Positions 1,548 to 24,172 of a DNA stretch of 36,138 nt are shown in pieces; position 1 is the stretch's first letter; each line of letters starts with the position of its first letter. Location of the stretch: UHGV virus genome UHGV-0014975. One strand, given 5' to 3'. The DNA is from a virus. Position numbers and translations under genes: made by a program. Under the pieces are notes generated by a model. The model saw only the letters and a list, made by a program, of their open reading frames with translations. It did no database searches and was not told the DNA's origin.

Positions 1548-3185
1548 TCACCCATTCAAATGGGCTTGAGAGGTTTTTTTGTGTTGAATAATCTCATGAT
1601 CACCATTAATAAGAAGGTCATAACCATAAAAAAGTTTTCGGTAATCTGATCTAATATTCGTTCCATGTTTAACGCTATATGCAAATTCGGGAAAAGCTGT
1701 CTCTTGTAAATATTTTTTTAATTCTTCCAGAGATAGTCTCTTTAAATTAAAAGTAAGTATGTTCACTAATCTTGTTTTATTATAATTTTGATCAAGAATT
1801 TCCTGCAATGATGCATGCTCTTTTTTACAATATTCAGGAATGTTTGAAATAAGATCTTCTAATCTCATTGTATTTTCAATTTTGTTATTCAATTTTGATA
1901 TGGTAATTTCCTCTAGGTTTAGTGAGTATACATCATTTTCTTTTAAGTATTTTCTAAACGGGGTTTTTGTGAGCCGACTTCCATCTTTAGACGCAAAAGT
2001 TAACGCAACAGAGGGTAAAAAATCATTTGTCTCGAACAAGTAATCTTGAATGTAAGATACAATATCAGGAAATACAAAGATGTTTTTCTTGTTACCTAAA
2101 GCGACAACGATATTTTTCCCATCTTTAATTTGTTCTTCTAGGTTTTCCATTTGATTCGGAGAGATTAATACGGCGTCTAATCTTCCCTGAGATCCTGCAC
2201 TTAATACAATATTTTTGATTGCTTTTTGGTATCTTAGTACTTCATGAGGAGACAATCCTTCATTTATAGTTGATATTTTATTATAAAAATCTTTATAGTT
2301 GTTCGTTTTTACAAGAAGATATCCTATATCAAGCTCTTGATCTCTCATCATTTCTTCACTCAAATTAGACTCATTAGGCTCATAGGAAACAATTACAATC
2401 CTATTCGTAGTCTTTCTGACATCCTCACTGGGTAATTGCGAAGCAAAATCAGAGAGTAGTTTTCTTACATTTCTATCACTTAAAGAGTAACCTAAAAAAA
2501 CTATAGGCGAGTCAATCATGTTTACAAGTATTTTTGCACTTATTAAAATTGAGTTACTATCATATTTTATATAATCTTCATCAGTAATTATTATCGACTT
2601 AGGATCTGTAACGTCTCCATGGATTTTGAACAATTCTCCCCAATCATTTGTAGGGTCAAAGAAACCTTTCTGACCAACAAATATAGATGGTTTTGCAGAT
2701 ATTTCCTCTAATAAGTTCTCAATAAATGGGTCGTAGTTTGTAGTCACAATTACTTTTGCTTTACTGATAAATTTTTTATATGAAATTAGTTCTTCATGGA
2801 ATTCTTCCTTAATTTCATAAGTTTTAAATCTATTTGCAATGTCAAATTTGAAAGGAGAAATAGAGTTTTTATATGCAGTTTTGATATCTAATCCGTCTAC
2901 CAAAATTTTTTCTTCAAAAAATAAATTATCAAATTTTTCTTGAATATAACCAGCTGTTTTTGTATTTGTATAAAAATCTTTTTCCGCTTCAGATTTATCA
3001 CGAATTTCATCACTATTTTTAATGGATCTCATAAATGTATAAAAATTTTTAGAGTCATTAATTCTATCCCAATACTCATTTAATAAATCATTCCAATTAG
3101 GAAAATCTTTTAGGTAGCGCTTTGATAATCCGGAGCCAATGAAAACAATAGGATACCGATTAGACTGTATAATATCTTTTAACAC
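1548..3185 (-). CDS. SIR2_2-family (sirtuin-like, DSR/ThsA-like) domain protein, 545 aa; candidate NAD+-depleting anti-phage effector
   Basis: The N-terminal ~280 aa carry SIR2_2 hallmarks: IVFIGSGLSKRYL...NWNDLL (Rossmann GxG start), KIHGDVTDPKSIIITDEDY and VFLGYSLSD. The C-terminal ~260 aa match no domain I recognise. It sits in the int-repressor 'defence/moron' slot and no TIR or HerA partner is present in the window. Confidence 0.6.
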   Translation of the reverse strand: MLKDIIQSNRYPIVFIGSGLSKRYLKDFPNWNDLLNEYWDRINDSKNFYTFMRSIKNSDEIRDKSEAEKDFYTNTKTAGYIQEKFDNLFFEEKILVDGLDIKTAYKNSISPFKFDIANRFKTYEIKEEFHEELISYKKFISKAKVIVTTNYDPFIENLLEEISAKPSIFVGQKGFFDPTNDWGELFKIHGDVTDPKSIIITDEDYIKYDSNSILISAKILVNMIDSPIVFLGYSLSDRNVRKLLSDFASQLPSEDVRKTTNRIVIVSYEPNESNLSEEMMRDQELDIGYLLVKTNNYKDFYNKISTINEGLSPHEVLRYQKAIKNIVLSAGSQGRLDAVLISPNQMENLEEQIKDGKNIVVALGNKKNIFVFPDIVSYIQDYLFETNDFLPSVALTFASKDGSRLTKTPFRKYLKENDVYSLNLEEITISKLNNKIENTMRLEDLISNIPEYCKKEHASLQEILDQNYNKTRLVNILTFNLKRLSLEELKKYLQETAFPEFAYSVKHGTNIRSDYRKLFYGYDLLINGDHEIIQHKKTSQAHLNG

Positions 3186-3338
3186 GTCATCATCTCATTT
3201 CGTTATTAATCTTAAATCAATAGTTGAGTGATCAAAAGAATTTTCCGAATCTAGAAAAGCAAGATAAGCAATTTAGAGACCGAAGAATAAAGAATGAAAA
3301 AAAGAAAGGTTGAAGAAAAAAGCTCAAGCACAGTTCTA

Positions 3339-4127
3339 TTAATTCCATTTATATTCTGTAACTGATAATACTTTTGATCTTCCTAAAGCATTTTTGCCAT
3401 TGTAGAAATAAATATGAGAACGTTCGTCTTGAAGACTATAGCTCATTACAGCACCTTGAATAGAGCTTGCAAGATTATCTTTCTCATCTGAGGAAAGGCT
3501 TCTAAAATCTTCTGTCACTTGAACTTCAATATCGGTGCCTGTCCATTCAATAGAATTGACTAGAAGCCAGTTTTGATATTCAGGATTTGGTTCCCCATTT
3601 TCAATGGAATTTCCATTCTCATCTATAGTACCAAGGGCCCAACCTTGATTAAGTTTCAAATGTTCGTCAATTTCATTATTAATTTCTGTTAACTCAGAAT
3701 CGACCGAACTAGATTGCTGGCTATCTTCTTTGCTATTACTTGATTGTTCCGGAAAGGGGGTAATAGTAATAGACTTACTTGCTTTTTGTCCATCTTTTGA
3801 AACATTGATTTTAAGTTCTTTTTCTTCATCAACTTTTTTGTAAATTAATTCAAACTCACCGTTTGAATCAGACTTAGTAGAATCTCCAACAATTCCTTTG
3901 CCGATTTTTACTTTAGCATCTGGAATAGTTGTACCAGTAATTTTTACTTTGCCATTTTCATCAGCTTGAAATTGATCTGGAATATCTAATGTTATTTCCT
4001 CATCGCTACTGATCACTGTACTTTCAACAACTTCGCTATTTGACACAGAATCTTTACCAGATTCAGAACACGATGCCAAGACTATTGTCGAAAATAAAAT
4101 TATCACAGCATATGCTAACTTTTTCAT
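3339..4127 (-). CDS. Prophage lipoprotein (signal peptide plus lipobox LASC); candidate superinfection-exclusion protein
   Basis: N-terminal MKKLAYAVIILFSTIVLASCSE, a typical SPase II lipobox, followed by a Ser/Asp-rich linker and an Ig-like beta region. It lies between int and the repressor, where Ltp-type Sie lipoproteins sit in other Firmicute phages. Confidence 0.6.
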   Translation of the reverse strand: MKKLAYAVIILFSTIVLASCSESGKDSVSNSEVVESTVISSDEEITLDIPDQFQADENGKVKITGTTIPDAKVKIGKGIVGDSTKSDSNGEFELIYKKVDEEKELKINVSKDGQKASKSITITPFPEQSSNSKEDSQQSSSVDSELTEINNEIDEHLKLNQGWALGTIDENGNSIENGEPNPEYQNWLLVNSIEWTGTDIEVQVTEDFRSLSSDEKDNLASSIQGAVMSYSLQDERSHIYFYNGKNALGRSKVLSVTEYKWN

Positions 4128-13295: not shown

Positions 13296-13444
13296 AGGGC
13301 GCACTCCTTTATGATTGTTGGCAGATTTCTCCTTTCTGAATTTCATTTTCAGCGCCCTGTATTTAAACTAAGACGGCGACAAAAAATCTAAAATAGAATG
13401 GAGTTGAATTCACTCCTTTTCTTCATTCGCTAGCCGTCTTTTTT
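13296..13444 (+). promoter_or_regulatory. Highly structured intergenic region (nested long hairpins ending in a T-run); candidate terminator or small RNA
   Basis: ACAGGGCGC(13296..13304)/GCGCCCTGT(13352..13360). AAGACGGC(13371..13378)/GCCGTCTT(13433..13440) encloses the palindrome GGAGTtGAATTCACTCC (13400..13416), and TTTTTT follows. Confidence 0.4.
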
Positions 13445-13518
13445 CAGGAATTGGCTCAGTTTGGTAGAGTGTCAGATTTTTAATCTGAAGATCGTAGGTT
13501 CAAGTCCTGCATTCCTGG
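13445..13518 (+). tRNA. tRNA-Lys (anticodon UUU), phage-encoded
   Basis: Manual cloverleaf: acceptor CAGGAAT/ATTCCTG, D-arm GCTC-AGTTTGGTA-GAGT, anticodon arm TCAGA-TTTTTAA-TCTGA (U33, UUU, A37), variable AGATC, T-arm GTAGG-TTCAAGT-CCTGC, discriminator G. No encoded CCA. Confidence 0.7.
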
Positions 13519-13643
13519 TTGGGAGTTGTCGATTGGATTACTCACATGATCTTTGATACTTCCTACTTAACAGCCTTTCGGGGCTGTTTTTTTCTATTGG
13601 GTATCACTCTGTTTATTGGTATGATATAGGAAAAGGAGTGAAA

Positions 13644-19695: not shown

Positions 19696-20556
19696 ATGGC
19701 TTTAGTATTAGACAGTAAAGACTTAGCAACTATTGATAAGGAATTCCGTGCCGATTCTCAAGTTTGGGATGTTCTGACCCAAGGAGCAAAGAGCATCACT
19801 GCGGCTGACTTTGTCGGAGCAAATGAAGTCCGAATTAATAAAATGAGTGGATTTGTGGAAGCAACACAATATAAACGTAATCAAGACAATGCTAGAAGTG
19901 CAGTTAGCATTGAGAAGGAAACGATCAAACTTACTCATGAAGACTGGTTTGCATATGATGTAGATCAGTTAGATCAATCTGAGAGTGCAGCTTTGACAAT
20001 TAACAATGTTGTAACTGAACATAAACGATTGATTACCGTTCCTCATCGTGACAAAGTGGCTATTCAAGTTATGTTCGACAATGCAGGTAAAAAAATCAAT
20101 GAAACTCTGACTGCGGCAAATATTCTCACTGCATATGACGCTGCAGAAGAATACATGACAGACAATGAAGTTCCTGGCGGATATGTGATGTTTGTTTCGG
20201 CAGCTACTTATCGATTATTGAAAAATGCTGATGGAGTCAGCAAAACTTTCTCCACAAATCAAATGCAGATTAACGGAATCAATCGTACGGTTGCTCAAAT
20301 TGACGGTGGTGTGCCAATCATCAAAGTTGCAAAAGGCCGTATGTCTGGTTTGACAATTGAAGACACTGTAAACTTTATCATTACACCACTAACAGCAATT
20401 GCTCCAATCGTTAAATTTGGTACGGTTGACACTGTTCCGGCTAGTCAAGATCGCAATGGCTACCGTGATACAATTAAAGGTTTGGACTATTACGATGCGA
20501 TTGTATTTGATAATGCTAAAAAAGCAATTTATGTATCTTACGTCCCAAAAGCGTAG
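19696..20556 (+). CDS. Major capsid protein
   Basis: 286 aa, position after the scaffold, HK97-fold-like composition; ends ...SYVPKA* with a slippery site in the last codons. Confidence 0.75.
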
Positions 20557-20813
20557 CCCCATCAGGAGTGACGTTAGATCAAACGACGTTATCTCTTGAA
20601 GTTGGGGGCACAGCGACGTTGAAAGCTACCGTTTCGCCTGCAGAAGCAAGTGACAAATCAGTTCAATTTAGTTCAAGCGATACGGGAATTGCGACTGTCA
20701 CTCCTGTACAAGGGAAAGTAACAGCGGTAGCGGCTGGATCTACAACGATCACAGCAACAACAGTAAATGGCAAAACTGCAACTTGCCAAGTCACCGTGAC
20801 GGAGGGAGCTTAA
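20550..20813 (+). CDS. -1 frame Big_2 (bacterial Ig-like) extension of the major capsid protein via programmed ribosomal frameshift
   Basis: The -1 frame is open from 20514 to 20813. The canonical X_XXY_YYZ heptamer C_CCA_AAA (20544..20550) sits two codons before the capsid stop. After the slip the reading is ...[85 protein letters not shown] (Big_2 signature). Confidence 0.7.
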
Positions 20814-21899: not shown

Positions 21900-22306
21900 T
21901 GGACTTTATAGAACGCTTAAATCAATCAGTGAATACTATTCCAAACTTACCGCTTAAATGTGTTCTGGGATATCTGCCACCAAAGGATGAAGCTTTTGTT
22001 TTGTACCCGTTAGCAGGTGGCCAAGTGACCCAAGAATTCTTTGACGGTACAAAAGATCAAGAGTTGAACTTTGAATTTGCAATGAAGTCACAAGATCAGC
22101 AGAAAATAAGTAATGCACTTTGGCTTGTGCAAAATTATCTAGAAGAGCTGTCGGAACTAAATAGTTCTGATGGCTCTTTTGATTTCGACTCTATTAGCAT
22201 TACAAACAAACCATTTATCAATCAACTGGATGAAATAGGTACTTACATCTTTTTGGTTGATATTAAAGCAAAAATCACAACTTATCCTAAGGGGGAAACA
22301 AACTAA
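21899..22306 (+). CDS. Tail completion / tail-to-head joining protein
   Basis: GTG start overlapping the previous stop; 135 aa; position immediately before the major tail protein. Confidence 0.5.
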   Translation: MDFIERLNQSVNTIPNLPLKCVLGYLPPKDEAFVLYPLAGGQVTQEFFDGTKDQELNFEFAMKSQDQQKISNALWLVQNYLEELSELNSSDGSFDFDSISITNKPFINQLDEIGTYIFLVDIKAKITTYPKGETN

Positions 22307-22764
22307 TGGCAAGAAAAAAGAACGCCCTACGGCAACATTTTGTTGCTGACTATGATGCAACTAAGCCAGACACTAAACCATTGGAAGACGCCTATAAGAA
22401 ATTTGGGCGCTACGTAACGACTGTTGAAGATGATGGCGATGTGCAATCGGAAGATTATGCCGATTACGCAGGCGATGGTACTTTATCAACCGATGTTACT
22501 GGCGTAACCGAAAAATGGAATTTTTCTGGTTATTGGGATCCAGAGCAAAAAGCGCAGCAACTTGTCAAAAAGAAAAAACGTGCTAAAGGCAATGATCGAA
22601 AAGTTTGGCATAAAATCATTGAAACAGACGGAACGACAATCGAAGGAGTTGGAACTCTTAGCGAGAAGATCGTAGCAGGTTCTGGGGAAGCTTCTGATTG
22701 GGAAGAATTCAGTTGTGCTATCACTTATGACAAAACACCAGAAGTAACGGAACCTACACCCTAA
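22306..22764 (+). CDS. Major tail protein
   Basis: 152 aa; position between head-tail joining genes and chaperones/TMP; ends CCC_TAA, a shifty stop leading into the FN3 extension. Confidence 0.65.
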   Translation: MARKKNALRQHFVADYDATKPDTKPLEDAYKKFGRYVTTVEDDGDVQSEDYADYAGDGTLSTDVTGVTEKWNFSGYWDPEQKAQQLVKKKKRAKGNDRKVWHKIIETDGTTIEGVGTLSEKIVAGSGEASDWEEFSCAITYDKTPEVTEPTP

Positions 22765-23104
22765 TGCTCCCCGGAACGTAACCGGGGAAATCAAAGAAGA
22801 TGGATCTATTTCTCTTGGTTGGGATGCTGTAGATGATGCTCAAGCTTATCTTGTGCATTACGGTAATGCGAATCAATCGGAACCAACCCAAGCTGTTAAT
22901 ATGGGCTACACAGAAACAACTAGCTGGACTTTAGCAACAGGTGATGTACCAGAGCTTACAACTGGAGATAAGATTTATCTCTATGTTCAGACTTACAGAG
23001 AAAAAGGTGTAGGCGCAACGGATGTTGAGAAAGCACGTTTCTTGCATGACGGTCCATATACTGGTTCAGCTTGGTCAACACCAACTATTTTAACTAAAGA
23101 CTAA
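22760..23104 (+). CDS. +1 frame FN3-domain extension of the major tail protein via programmed +1 frameshift
   Basis: The +1 frame is open from 22748 to 23104. The slip is at CCC_UAA (22759..22764), with tRNA-Pro re-pairing on CCU. The continuation NAPRNVTGEIKEDGSISLGWDAVDDAQAYLVHYG...TSWTLATGD...GDKIYLYVQTY is a classic fibronectin type III pattern. Same arrangement as SPP1 gp17.1* and Listeria phage PSA Tsh-L. Confidence 0.65.
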   Translation, partial: PNAPRNVTGEIKEDGSISLGWDAVDDAQAYLVHYGNANQSEPTQAVNMGYTETTSWTLATGDVPELTTGDKIYLYVQTYREKGVGATDVEKARFLHDGPYTGSAWSTPTILTKD

Positions 23105-23149
23105 AAGGGAGGGCTTATTGCCCTCTTTTTTTATTAGGAGGAAACAAAC

Positions 23150-23593
23150 ATGCAATTTGAAATTAAACGTTCTGGATTTCCTATTAACATCGGAAAAATT
23201 GAGTTTTTCTTTGGGACAACAGTCGAGGAATTAACACGCTTTTTCGATGTTCAAGACGAAGTCGAAGAAAAGATTGCGCCATTGGTGAAAAAGCGAGAAA
23301 AATTAGTGATCGATCAAGAAAATATTACTAAACGTGATGCTGAAAGTCTTATTGAGATCTCTAATGAACTTAATGCTATTCAGTACGATGCACTTCTTGG
23401 TGATGGATCCTATGAAAAAATCTATTCGAAGTACCAAGATGCAATTCAATTGTTCGATTTATTTGATCAAATCTTTGAGAACATTATTGAAGCGATTGAA
23501 AACTATGCAAAAGAGCGTGAAGACAAGTTAGCACAACGCAAAGCAAATATGCTGAAGAAGAAAGCTCTTAAAAACAAAAAGAAGAAAAAGTAG
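23150..23593 (+). CDS. Tail assembly chaperone-like protein (gpG position)
   Basis: 147 aa, acidic with a Lys-rich C-terminal tail; strong RBS AGGAGGAAACAAAC-ATG; sits between the major tail protein and the TMP. Confidence 0.5.
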   Translation: MQFEIKRSGFPINIGKIEFFFGTTVEELTRFFDVQDEVEEKIAPLVKKREKLVIDQENITKRDAESLIEISNELNAIQYDALLGDGSYEKIYSKYQDAIQLFDLFDQIFENIIEAIENYAKEREDKLAQRKANMLKKKALKNKKKKK

Positions 23594-23602
23594 GTGATCT
23601 AG

Positions 23603-24172
23603 ATGCGGTTGAATGACCCATTGACCACTGAAATTGAATTTGAAGGTAGTGTGTATCCACTTGATCTGGCTTTTGATAATGTCTTGGATGTTTTAGATAC
23701 CATCTCTGACAGGTCTTTGATGGCTTGGGAAAAGGTTGATTTAGCTCTCAATCTTCTTGTAGGTGAATCTAATCTTACCTTCGAGAAACAAATGGAGCTT
23801 TGGGAGTTGATTTTGAATCGACATATTCAGATCGGAAGTCAAGAGAAAGTGATTTATGACTTAGAAGGCAATCCTATGCCAACACCTAAATCTTCTGATG
23901 ACAAAAAGAGTATGGACTTGGTCCAAGATGCTAAGTACATATATGCCTCCTTCCGTCAAATCGGCATTAATCTTTTTGAGGAGCAAGGGAAAATGCACTG
24001 GGAAGAATTTCAAGCTATCCTAGAAAGCCTTCCAGATGACACAATTCTTCCAAAAATTGTTCAAATCCGCAACTGGTCGCCTAGTAAAGGTGAAAGCGAA
24101 AAGGAAAAAGAGCGCATGAGAGAACTGCAAGCCAAATACTCCTTAAACAAGGAGGTGGATGCTGATGGCTGA
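23603..24172 (+). CDS. Tail assembly chaperone-like protein 2 (gpT position)
   Basis: 189 aa; same frame as the upstream gene, separated by two stop codons; stop overlaps the TMP start region. Confidence 0.5.
   Translation: MRLNDPLTTEIEFEGSVYPLDLAFDNVLDVLDTISDRSLMAWEKVDLALNLLVGESNLTFEKQMELWELILNRHIQIGSQEKVIYDLEGNPMPTPKSSDDKKSMDLVQDAKYIYASFRQIGINLFEEQGKMHWEEFQAILESLPDDTILPKIVQIRNWSPSKGESEKEKERMRELQAKYSLNKEVDADG

Follow-up and report, generated by a model that had tools for sequence, protein, structure and literature searches.

How does a virus express a conserved coding stretch that begins without a start codon, immediately behind the stop codon of its major tail protein gene? This question is raised by the UHGV virus genome UHGV-0014975, that of an Enterococcus-type phage; the whole analysed stretch (36,138 nucleotides, nt) is called the window here. 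On its plus strand, the gene for the major tail (tube) protein occupies positions 22306–22764 and encodes a zero-frame product of 152 amino acids (aa). It ends with GAA CCT ACA CCC TAA, and the +1 frame remains open across this end into a predicted fibronectin type III (FN3) domain. We propose that a programmed +1 ribosomal frameshift at the "shifty stop" CCC_UAA yields an FN3-extended major tail protein, and we put the probability of this reading at about 0.85.

A +1 reading frame opens at the end of the major tail protein gene

The last sense codon of the tail gene, CCC, lies at 22759–22761 and is followed by the stop codon TAA at 22762–22764. In this candidate shift site (22759–22764, plus strand), CCC would occupy the P site and TAA the A site; read in +1, these letters give CCT AAT. 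A stop codon at 22745–22747 precedes the open stretch of the +1 frame, which begins at 22748, runs to a TAA at 23102–23104 and overlaps the tail gene by 17 nt. A slip from CCC to CCU would give a product reading ...TEPTP-NAPRNVTGEI..., with 113 residues added, and the junction peptide predicted for this long form is TPEVTEPTPNAPR. The extension (NAPRNVTGEI...ILTKD) is encoded by positions 22763–23104 of the plus strand, stop codon included. An earlier note on this DNA had described the ACA CCC UAA ending, the opening of the +1 frame at 22748 with its 17-nt overlap, and the junction TEPTP-NAPRNVTGEI; the sequence bears out all of these, the last as its +1 reading. The extension, given there as 115 aa, does lie in a long open frame, but the count differs: 118 codons are open, and 113 residues follow the shared proline. 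The site had been described as CCC_UAA, which stands, but the hairpin that begins 3 nt after the stop codon (see below) was missing from the description.

The upstream open reading frame (ORF) was identified as a major tail protein by its match to phrog_820 (E 1.8e-39) and by its homology to the tsh gene of Listeria phage A500 in tblastn (39.5% identity, residues 1–150, E 1e-17). Gene order points the same way, with a tail terminator gene (PF12691) on one side and A118-type Gp14/Gp15-like genes plus a 1163-aa tape-measure gene on the other. The tail protein has no Pfam family match, and a PDB sequence search gave no relative of it. Moreover, no match to the region was found by megablast in 50,697 phage records, and protein-level searches were therefore used.

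The codon CCC is rare in the window, where it makes up 12 of 265 proline codons (4.5%) and 12 of the 8384 codons of 29 ORFs. The tail gene contains a single CCC, which is its last codon, and it is the only one of the 29 ORFs to end in CCC-stop. Chance is not a plausible source of a CCC-stop at the end of this gene. The 17-nt overlap (CGGAACCTACACCCTAA) holds no slippery heptamer of the X_XXY_YYZ type that marks canonical −1 frameshifting, and the extension lies in the +1 frame. A Shine-Dalgarno stimulator like that of prfB was looked for upstream of CCC in the window and none was seen; the sequence upstream of CCC varies between the genes that carry the extension.

The first canonical start codon (ATG, GTG or TTG) of the +1 frame is GTG 22853, which lies inside the FN3 domain. 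A start at this codon would cost 30 conserved residues, and no Shine-Dalgarno sequence is found upstream of it. An ATG at 22764–22766 was also considered and rejected, as it begins only a 5-codon ORF in the other frame.

The extension is modelled as an FN3 domain and is conserved in the +1 frame

The AlphaFold model of the extension, built with 33 homologues, reached a predicted local distance difference test score (pLDDT) of 95.8 and a predicted template modelling score (pTM) of 0.87. When it was compared with the PDB by Foldseek, the best matches listed were FN3 domains, FN3-based monobodies and adnectins, and FN3-containing receptor ectodomains (template modelling scores of 0.47–0.66, probability 1.00). 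The FN3 fold is thus confidently modelled, in agreement with the fibronectin-III-like domain proposed earlier. By sequence, the extension matches the C-terminal third of the tail-protein family phrog_7440 (E 4e-33).

The model contains an extra alpha-helix at extension residues 87–96 (window 23021–23050), between the last two strands. Its sequence, DVEKARFLHD, is the most conserved stretch of the family. A helix at this place is unusual among FN3 domains, and it may be the functional site.

The ratio of non-synonymous to synonymous substitution rates (dN/dS) of the extension, computed between the window and four relatives, is 0.11–0.24 when the +1 frame is read; the other two frames, which hold 5 and 8 stop codons, give values of about 1 or above. 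By this measure, purifying selection acts on the extension solely as read in the +1 frame. In an alignment of the ORFs called by annotation pipelines, conservation sets in sharply at (L)HPNAP and the part upstream is unconserved. The HPNAP motif corresponds to ACA CCC TAA TGC read in the +1 frame.

The CCC-stop junction recurs in relatives of the extension

We collected 116 loci coding for a relative of the extension and analysed their junctions by script. Most of them came from viral and metagenome scans, while a profile search of genome contigs with the extension alignment contributed only 5 loci. A +1 FN3 ORF behind CCC-stop was found in 89 of the 116 loci, drawn from isolates, prophages and metagenomes and representing 46 distinct 42-nt junctions. 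All three stop codons occur in this group (TAA in 76 loci, TGA in 11 and TAG in 2). A further 6 loci have the junction CCC AGC TAA, and point variants of the slip codon were found in 13 (CAC in 10, all with one junction sequence, TCC in 2 and CCA in 1). The remaining loci place the FN3 domain in the −1 frame (2 loci, of which L078 has the canonical heptamer C_CCA_AAA), in frame with the upstream gene (5 loci: phiFL4A gp45, AE4_2, L037, L038 and L082), or in a gene of its own (1 locus). In this last case (L114), FN3 forms the N-terminus of a 298-aa gene at 2980–3876, which lies behind a 351-aa ORF and has both an ATG of its own and a GGAGG site. Four modes of adding the domain were therefore seen, namely +1 shift, −1 shift, in-frame fusion and separate gene.

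The exact tail protein of the window, with the same layout, recurs in an independent assembly. The earlier note had named a single-base sequencing error near 22759 as something that would refute the +1 shift; the layout is exact in this assembly and is kept in the 89 loci.

Homologues of the phrog_820 tail gene that lack the extension end with TCA AAA TAA, GTT TTA TAA or GGT GGA TAA, and are followed directly by a terminator hairpin or a chaperone gene. As these homologues do not carry CCC-stop, the CCC-stop tracks the extension and not the tail-protein family. One homologous tail gene, in Latilactobacillus phage TMW 1.1393 P1 (L119, 1630–1710), ends TCA AAA TAA, and the −1 frame after it reads KITAPEAVAVAGTKDGGNITAQ before a stop codon. 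This reading may be the truncated start of an Ig-like/FN3 extension, a remnant of one that was lost.

A hairpin follows the proposed shift site at a constant distance

Downstream of the shift site, positions 22768–22788 of the plus strand can form the hairpin U-CCCCGG/AACGUAA/CCGGGG-A, with 7 base pairs and a 7-nt loop. It begins 3 nt after the stop codon, and its C-run lies at +11 from the first base of CCC. The predicted minimum free energy is −13.6 kcal/mol (z −2.45). Of the 46 distinct CCC-stop junctions, 33 have a homologous hairpin (CCCCAG...CTGGGG or CCCCGG...CCGGGG), and some junctions hold other small hairpins.

Covariation within the hairpin is confined to a single pair (AU 32, GC 4, UA 2). 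Because this signal is weak, the case for the hairpin rests mainly on a bias among synonymous codons and on the constant spacing. All 66 distinct extensions use CCC for the proline at extension residue 3, whereas CCC makes up 5.1% of the proline codons in related loci. Similarly, glutamine at residue 4 is CAG in 44 of 51 (background 17%), and glycine at residue 8 is GGG in 50 of 63 (background 14%). In the distinct contexts that are not +1, the proline equivalent to residue 3 is CCT, CCA or CCG and never CCC. We infer that stimulation of the +1 shift is a possible role for the hairpin at 22768–22788.

Natural variants of the slip codon and of the stop position

The CAC variants, which read ACA CAC TAA, are found at about 2990–3003 of their loci (L019, L020, L024, L067, L069, L070, L073, L076, L077 and L081), and ACA TCC TAA is found in L001 (3449–3457) and L075. 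The extension DNA of these two TCC loci is identical to that of L023, with CCC, and we take the slip-codon variants to be very recent. The single CCA variant (L013, 2985–3003) combines CCA TAA with a premature stop codon 15 nt upstream and matches the P0024 protein cluster (38 member sequences). The variants may be leaky or null alleles of a dispensable feature, or may use a −2 shift (on ACACAC) or an antizyme-like shift at UCC-stop. UCC-stop is the antizyme-type +1 site (PMC10885494).

The 6 loci with the junction ACA CCC AGC TAA G-CCCCAG...CTGGGG (L034, L049, L098, L099, L107 and L110; about 2985–3030) have their stop codon one codon later, and yet the C-run of the hairpin is still at +11 from the first base of CCC. 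This fixed spacing in spite of the moved stop suggests that the shift takes place on CCC and that an element acting at a set distance is involved. A slip in this lineage would have the sense codon AGC in the A site.

Comparison with known shifty stops

In Bacillus phage SPP1, a +1 shift at CCCUAA adds an FN3 domain to gp17.1, giving gp17.1* (PMC6316719). The extension has 87 aa, the two forms occur in a 3:1 ratio, and the extension is dispensable (PMC6316719; PMC8718954). The earlier note had correctly named this system and that of Listeria phage PSA as precedents (PMC6316719; PMC5009743), and the comparison with SPP1 17.1/17.1* that it recommended revealed the same CCC UAA site and near-identical junction DNA. 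SPP1 and the window thus share the slip site, a tail tube protein as carrier and an added FN3 domain. The SPP1 junction, GCT CCC TAA TGC GCC CCA GAA, is near the consensus of the loci found; its extension starts PNAPQN, against PNAPRN in the window, and the first 34 extension residues are 44% identical. The tail proteins, in contrast, belong to different families, with no SPP1 record among the best 40 tblastn matches of the fused window product. The window extension is also longer (113 aa against 87 aa), and its model has the extra helix at residues 87–96. The SPP1 shift is experimentally proven, whereas that of the window is a prediction from sequence.

The tsh genes of Listeria phages PSA, A118 and A500 have a +1 shift at (AAA) CCC_UGA that is reported as utilised (PMC5009743). 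A500 Tsh is a homologue of the window tail protein, and both lie in an A118-type Gp14/Gp15 tail module. The A500 junction, AAA CCC TGA, differs in its stop codon (UGA instead of UAA), and its +1-frame domain looks like a Big_2-type Ig domain from a reading of the sequence, where the window has FN3. No C-run or hairpin is evident in the A500 sequence at the distance of the window hairpin. In the lactococcal 936-group phage PhiC0139, a +1 shift at CCC.UAG gives MTP-TpeX, the long form of which was seen by western blot and decorates the tail (PMC4759559). Here too a CCC-stop shifty stop ends the major tail protein gene, but the stop codon is UAG, the added part is the 22.6-kDa carbohydrate-binding TpeX instead of one FN3 domain, and the tail protein is of another family.

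Two further systems reach a similar product by other routes. Enterococcus phage phiFL4A gp45 and the "fibronectin-like protein" of AE4_2 carry a homologous C-terminal FN3 domain (46% identity) on the major tail protein of an enterococcal siphophage, but in frame, so that every subunit carries one; CCC-stop is absent and the equivalent proline is CCT. In Lactobacillus phage A2, −1 shifts in head and tail genes give Ig-like extensions of major virion proteins (PMC5221750; PMC5009743). These are −1 shifts by tandem slippage on a heptamer, unlike that proposed for the window tail gene. Taken together, we regard the window tail gene as a well-supported new example of the known shifty-stop mechanism.

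Other explanations and points against the +1 shift

A −2 shift, or a short hop, into the same frame would produce a junction such as ...TEPTPPNAPR, with the peptide TPEVTEPTPPNAPR, and we consider it improbable. In the 10 ACA CAC TAA variants, tRNA-His could re-pair perfectly two bases back on ACACAC. In the window, by contrast, a −2 move would bring tRNA-Pro from CCC onto CAC, with no pairing, whereas the +1 move lands on the synonymous CCU, and the experimentally studied relatives have been reported as +1 at CCC-stop. There is also a slim chance that the FN3 ORF is a separate small gene with a start of its own, for instance the 83-aa ORF from GTG 22853. For all 42 database homologues, automatic annotation gives separate ORFs of 67–134 aa ("fibronectin type III domain-containing protein"), and L114 proves that a stand-alone version exists. 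However, no ATG, GTG, TTG or Shine-Dalgarno sequence stands before the 30 conserved N-terminal residues, from which strands one and two of the model are built. What is annotated as the N-terminus is tail-gene sequence read out of frame; it is not conserved, and conservation sets in only at HPNAP. The starts chosen by the gene callers also differ from locus to locus, while L114, with its ATG and GGAGG, shows what a real start looks like.

We find it very hard to credit that a sequencing error, or a recent indel, has turned an in-frame tail-FN3 fusion of the phiFL4A gp45 kind into this layout, or that the layout is a decaying remnant. Homologous in-frame fusions do exist (phiFL4A, AE4_2, L037 and L082), and some lineages look damaged, such as L013 with its premature stop plus CCA. 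Against this, the same +1 layout is present in 89 independent loci with 46 distinct junctions, selection in the +1 frame is strong and purifying, and the window sequence is exactly reproduced in the independent assembly. Similarly far-fetched is transcriptional slippage, in which RNA polymerase would slip on the C-run and make an mRNA that is one base shorter, even if such slippage is a known way to obtain two products per gene (reviewed in PMC5009743). The run is just 3 C (ACACCCTAA), and a stop codon stands directly after CCC in 89 loci with all three stops in use, which is the signature of a ribosomal A site and not of a polymerase. For a polymerase to slip, longer homopolymers are required, usually of at least six A or T.

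Several observations weigh against the +1 frameshift or against a part of the hairpin in it. As +1 and −2 shifts enter one and the same frame, they are not separable by sequence alone. The CAC, TCC and CCA variants retain an intact extension, which indicates either that the site tolerates change or that the phages can do without the long form and lose it readily. Against Pfam fn3 (PF00041), the extension scores 19 bits (E 0.0016), below the gathering threshold of 25 bits, so that by sequence it is not a formal Pfam member. As for the hairpin, its 3' arm is lacking in 13 of the 46 distinct junctions, and the CTGGGG arm was not seen in the SPP1 sequence, which was read and not folded; the hairpin is therefore not required. 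The stand-alone gene of L114 also folds at the homologous place, and the covariation exceeded the shuffle and slide controls for percentage paired only.

Proposed mechanism

The +1 shift at CCC_UAA put forward in the earlier note is supported by the 89 loci, by selection in the +1 frame only and by the homology to A500 Tsh. Under this reading, most ribosomes would stop at TAA 22762–22764 and release the 152-aa tube subunit. In a minority of them, with peptidyl-tRNA-Pro on the rare CCC at 22759–22761 and the A site awaiting a release factor, tRNA-Pro would re-pair one base downstream, on CCU. Decoding would then resume at AAU and continue through 113 further codons to 23104. The resulting long form would be a 265-aa tail subunit with a C-terminal FN3 domain on a proline-rich linker (...TPEVTEPTP-NAPRN...). 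The G+C-rich hairpin would stand at the mRNA entry when CCC is in the P site, where it would probably lengthen the pause or resist forward movement, and thus increase shifting. Short and long forms may co-assemble in the tail tube with FN3 facing outward and, by analogy with SPP1, the FN3 domains would bind weakly to the cell surface and be dispensable.

Surrounding genes and a candidate −1 shift signal in the capsid gene

A terminator-like hairpin, GAGGGC-TTATT-GCCCTC followed by TTTTTTT, can be read at 23109–23132 on the plus strand, after the extension and before the chaperone gene. Its position places the FN3 ORF within the transcription unit of the tail protein. The hairpin scan reported this same stem, at 23109–23125, on the minus strand only. 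An Rfam covariance-model search gave no match at 22700–22800, only sub-threshold matches around the terminator. Between the tail and tape-measure genes lie 23150–23593 (weak Phage_TAC_8 match) and 23603–24172 (Phage_Gp15), which share a reading frame, with TAG and 9 nt between them; the 3' end of the first is a lysine-rich, A-rich run.

The major capsid gene (19696–20556, phrog_422) ends GTC CCA AAA GCG TAG, with the heptamer C_CCA_AAA at 20544–20550. Its −1 frame continues into a Big_2 domain (PF02368, E 4e-16) that ends at 20813, and some 6 nt past the heptamer a long stem-loop begins (101 nt, −31.2 kcal/mol, z −2.1). The same heptamer, which also occurs in L078, is presumably the shift site of phage A2 too. 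The L078 junction, C CCA AAA TCG TAG CCC C..., nearly matches that of the window capsid gene but leads into the FN3 family. A phage tRNA-Lys with anticodon UUU (window 13444–13519) reads the A-site AAA of the capsid heptamer. That this phage combines a −1 capsid shift and a +1 tail shift, as the earlier note remarked, holds at the sequence level, but it is not special, as A118 and A500 likewise pair a −1 capsid shift with a +1 tail shift (PMC5009743).

The FN3 domain as a possible portable cassette

Behind one and the same (A/G)CA CCC-stop junction, the FN3 domain is carried by at least 5 unrelated major tail protein families (phrog_820, 117, 885, 88 and 238) and 3 major head protein families (phrog_10, 247 and 422). 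The loci with a head protein as carrier are L008, L025, L027, L028, L030–L033, L043, L079, L086–L088, L093, L101–L105 and L108. The phrog_422 head family carries FN3 elsewhere, while the window's own phrog_422 capsid protein carries Big_2 via the −1 shift. Identity to the window FN3 domain is 72% for L006, on another tail family, and 68% for L043, on a head protein, compared with 58% for L001, on the same tail family as in the window. In loci with different carriers, similarity begins at ACA CCC.

The same junction on many carriers, SPP1 included, together with the likeness of FN3 domains across carriers and the fixed rare codons, suggests that the domain could travel with its recoding signal as a self-contained portable cassette, able to be grafted onto the 3' ends of genes for abundant virion proteins. 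The parts of this putative cassette would be (A/G)CA CCC-stop, a 3-nt spacer, the C-run/hairpin at +11 and the FN3 ORF. We see the arguments for and against such a cassette as evenly balanced.

Implications

Annotation pipelines treat the small FN3 ORF as a separate gene, but most probably it encodes the C-terminal part of a second, longer tail-tube subunit, and its annotation should be corrected in this sense. In enterococcal, lactococcal and related phages, about 90 loci combine one FN3 module and CCC-stop with many head and tail genes that are unrelated to each other, and looking for CCC-stop followed by FN3 is a simple way to detect and annotate +1 recoding. The predictors now in use are weak on +1 shifts, with PRFect finding 0 of the 481 forward shifts in RECODE (PMC10885494). 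Moreover, the variant loci provide a natural mutant series for the requirements of +1 shifty stops in Firmicutes, spanning CCC versus TCC, CAC or CCA, the three stop codons, the hairpin present or absent, and the stop moved by one codon.

According to the review of Atkins, the use of frameshifting for Ig-like extensions reflects chance, after out-of-frame insertion (PMC5009743). If the FN3 domain does move as a cassette, its arrival would immediately provide a decorated subunit in sub-stoichiometric amounts, and this chance view would have to be revised.

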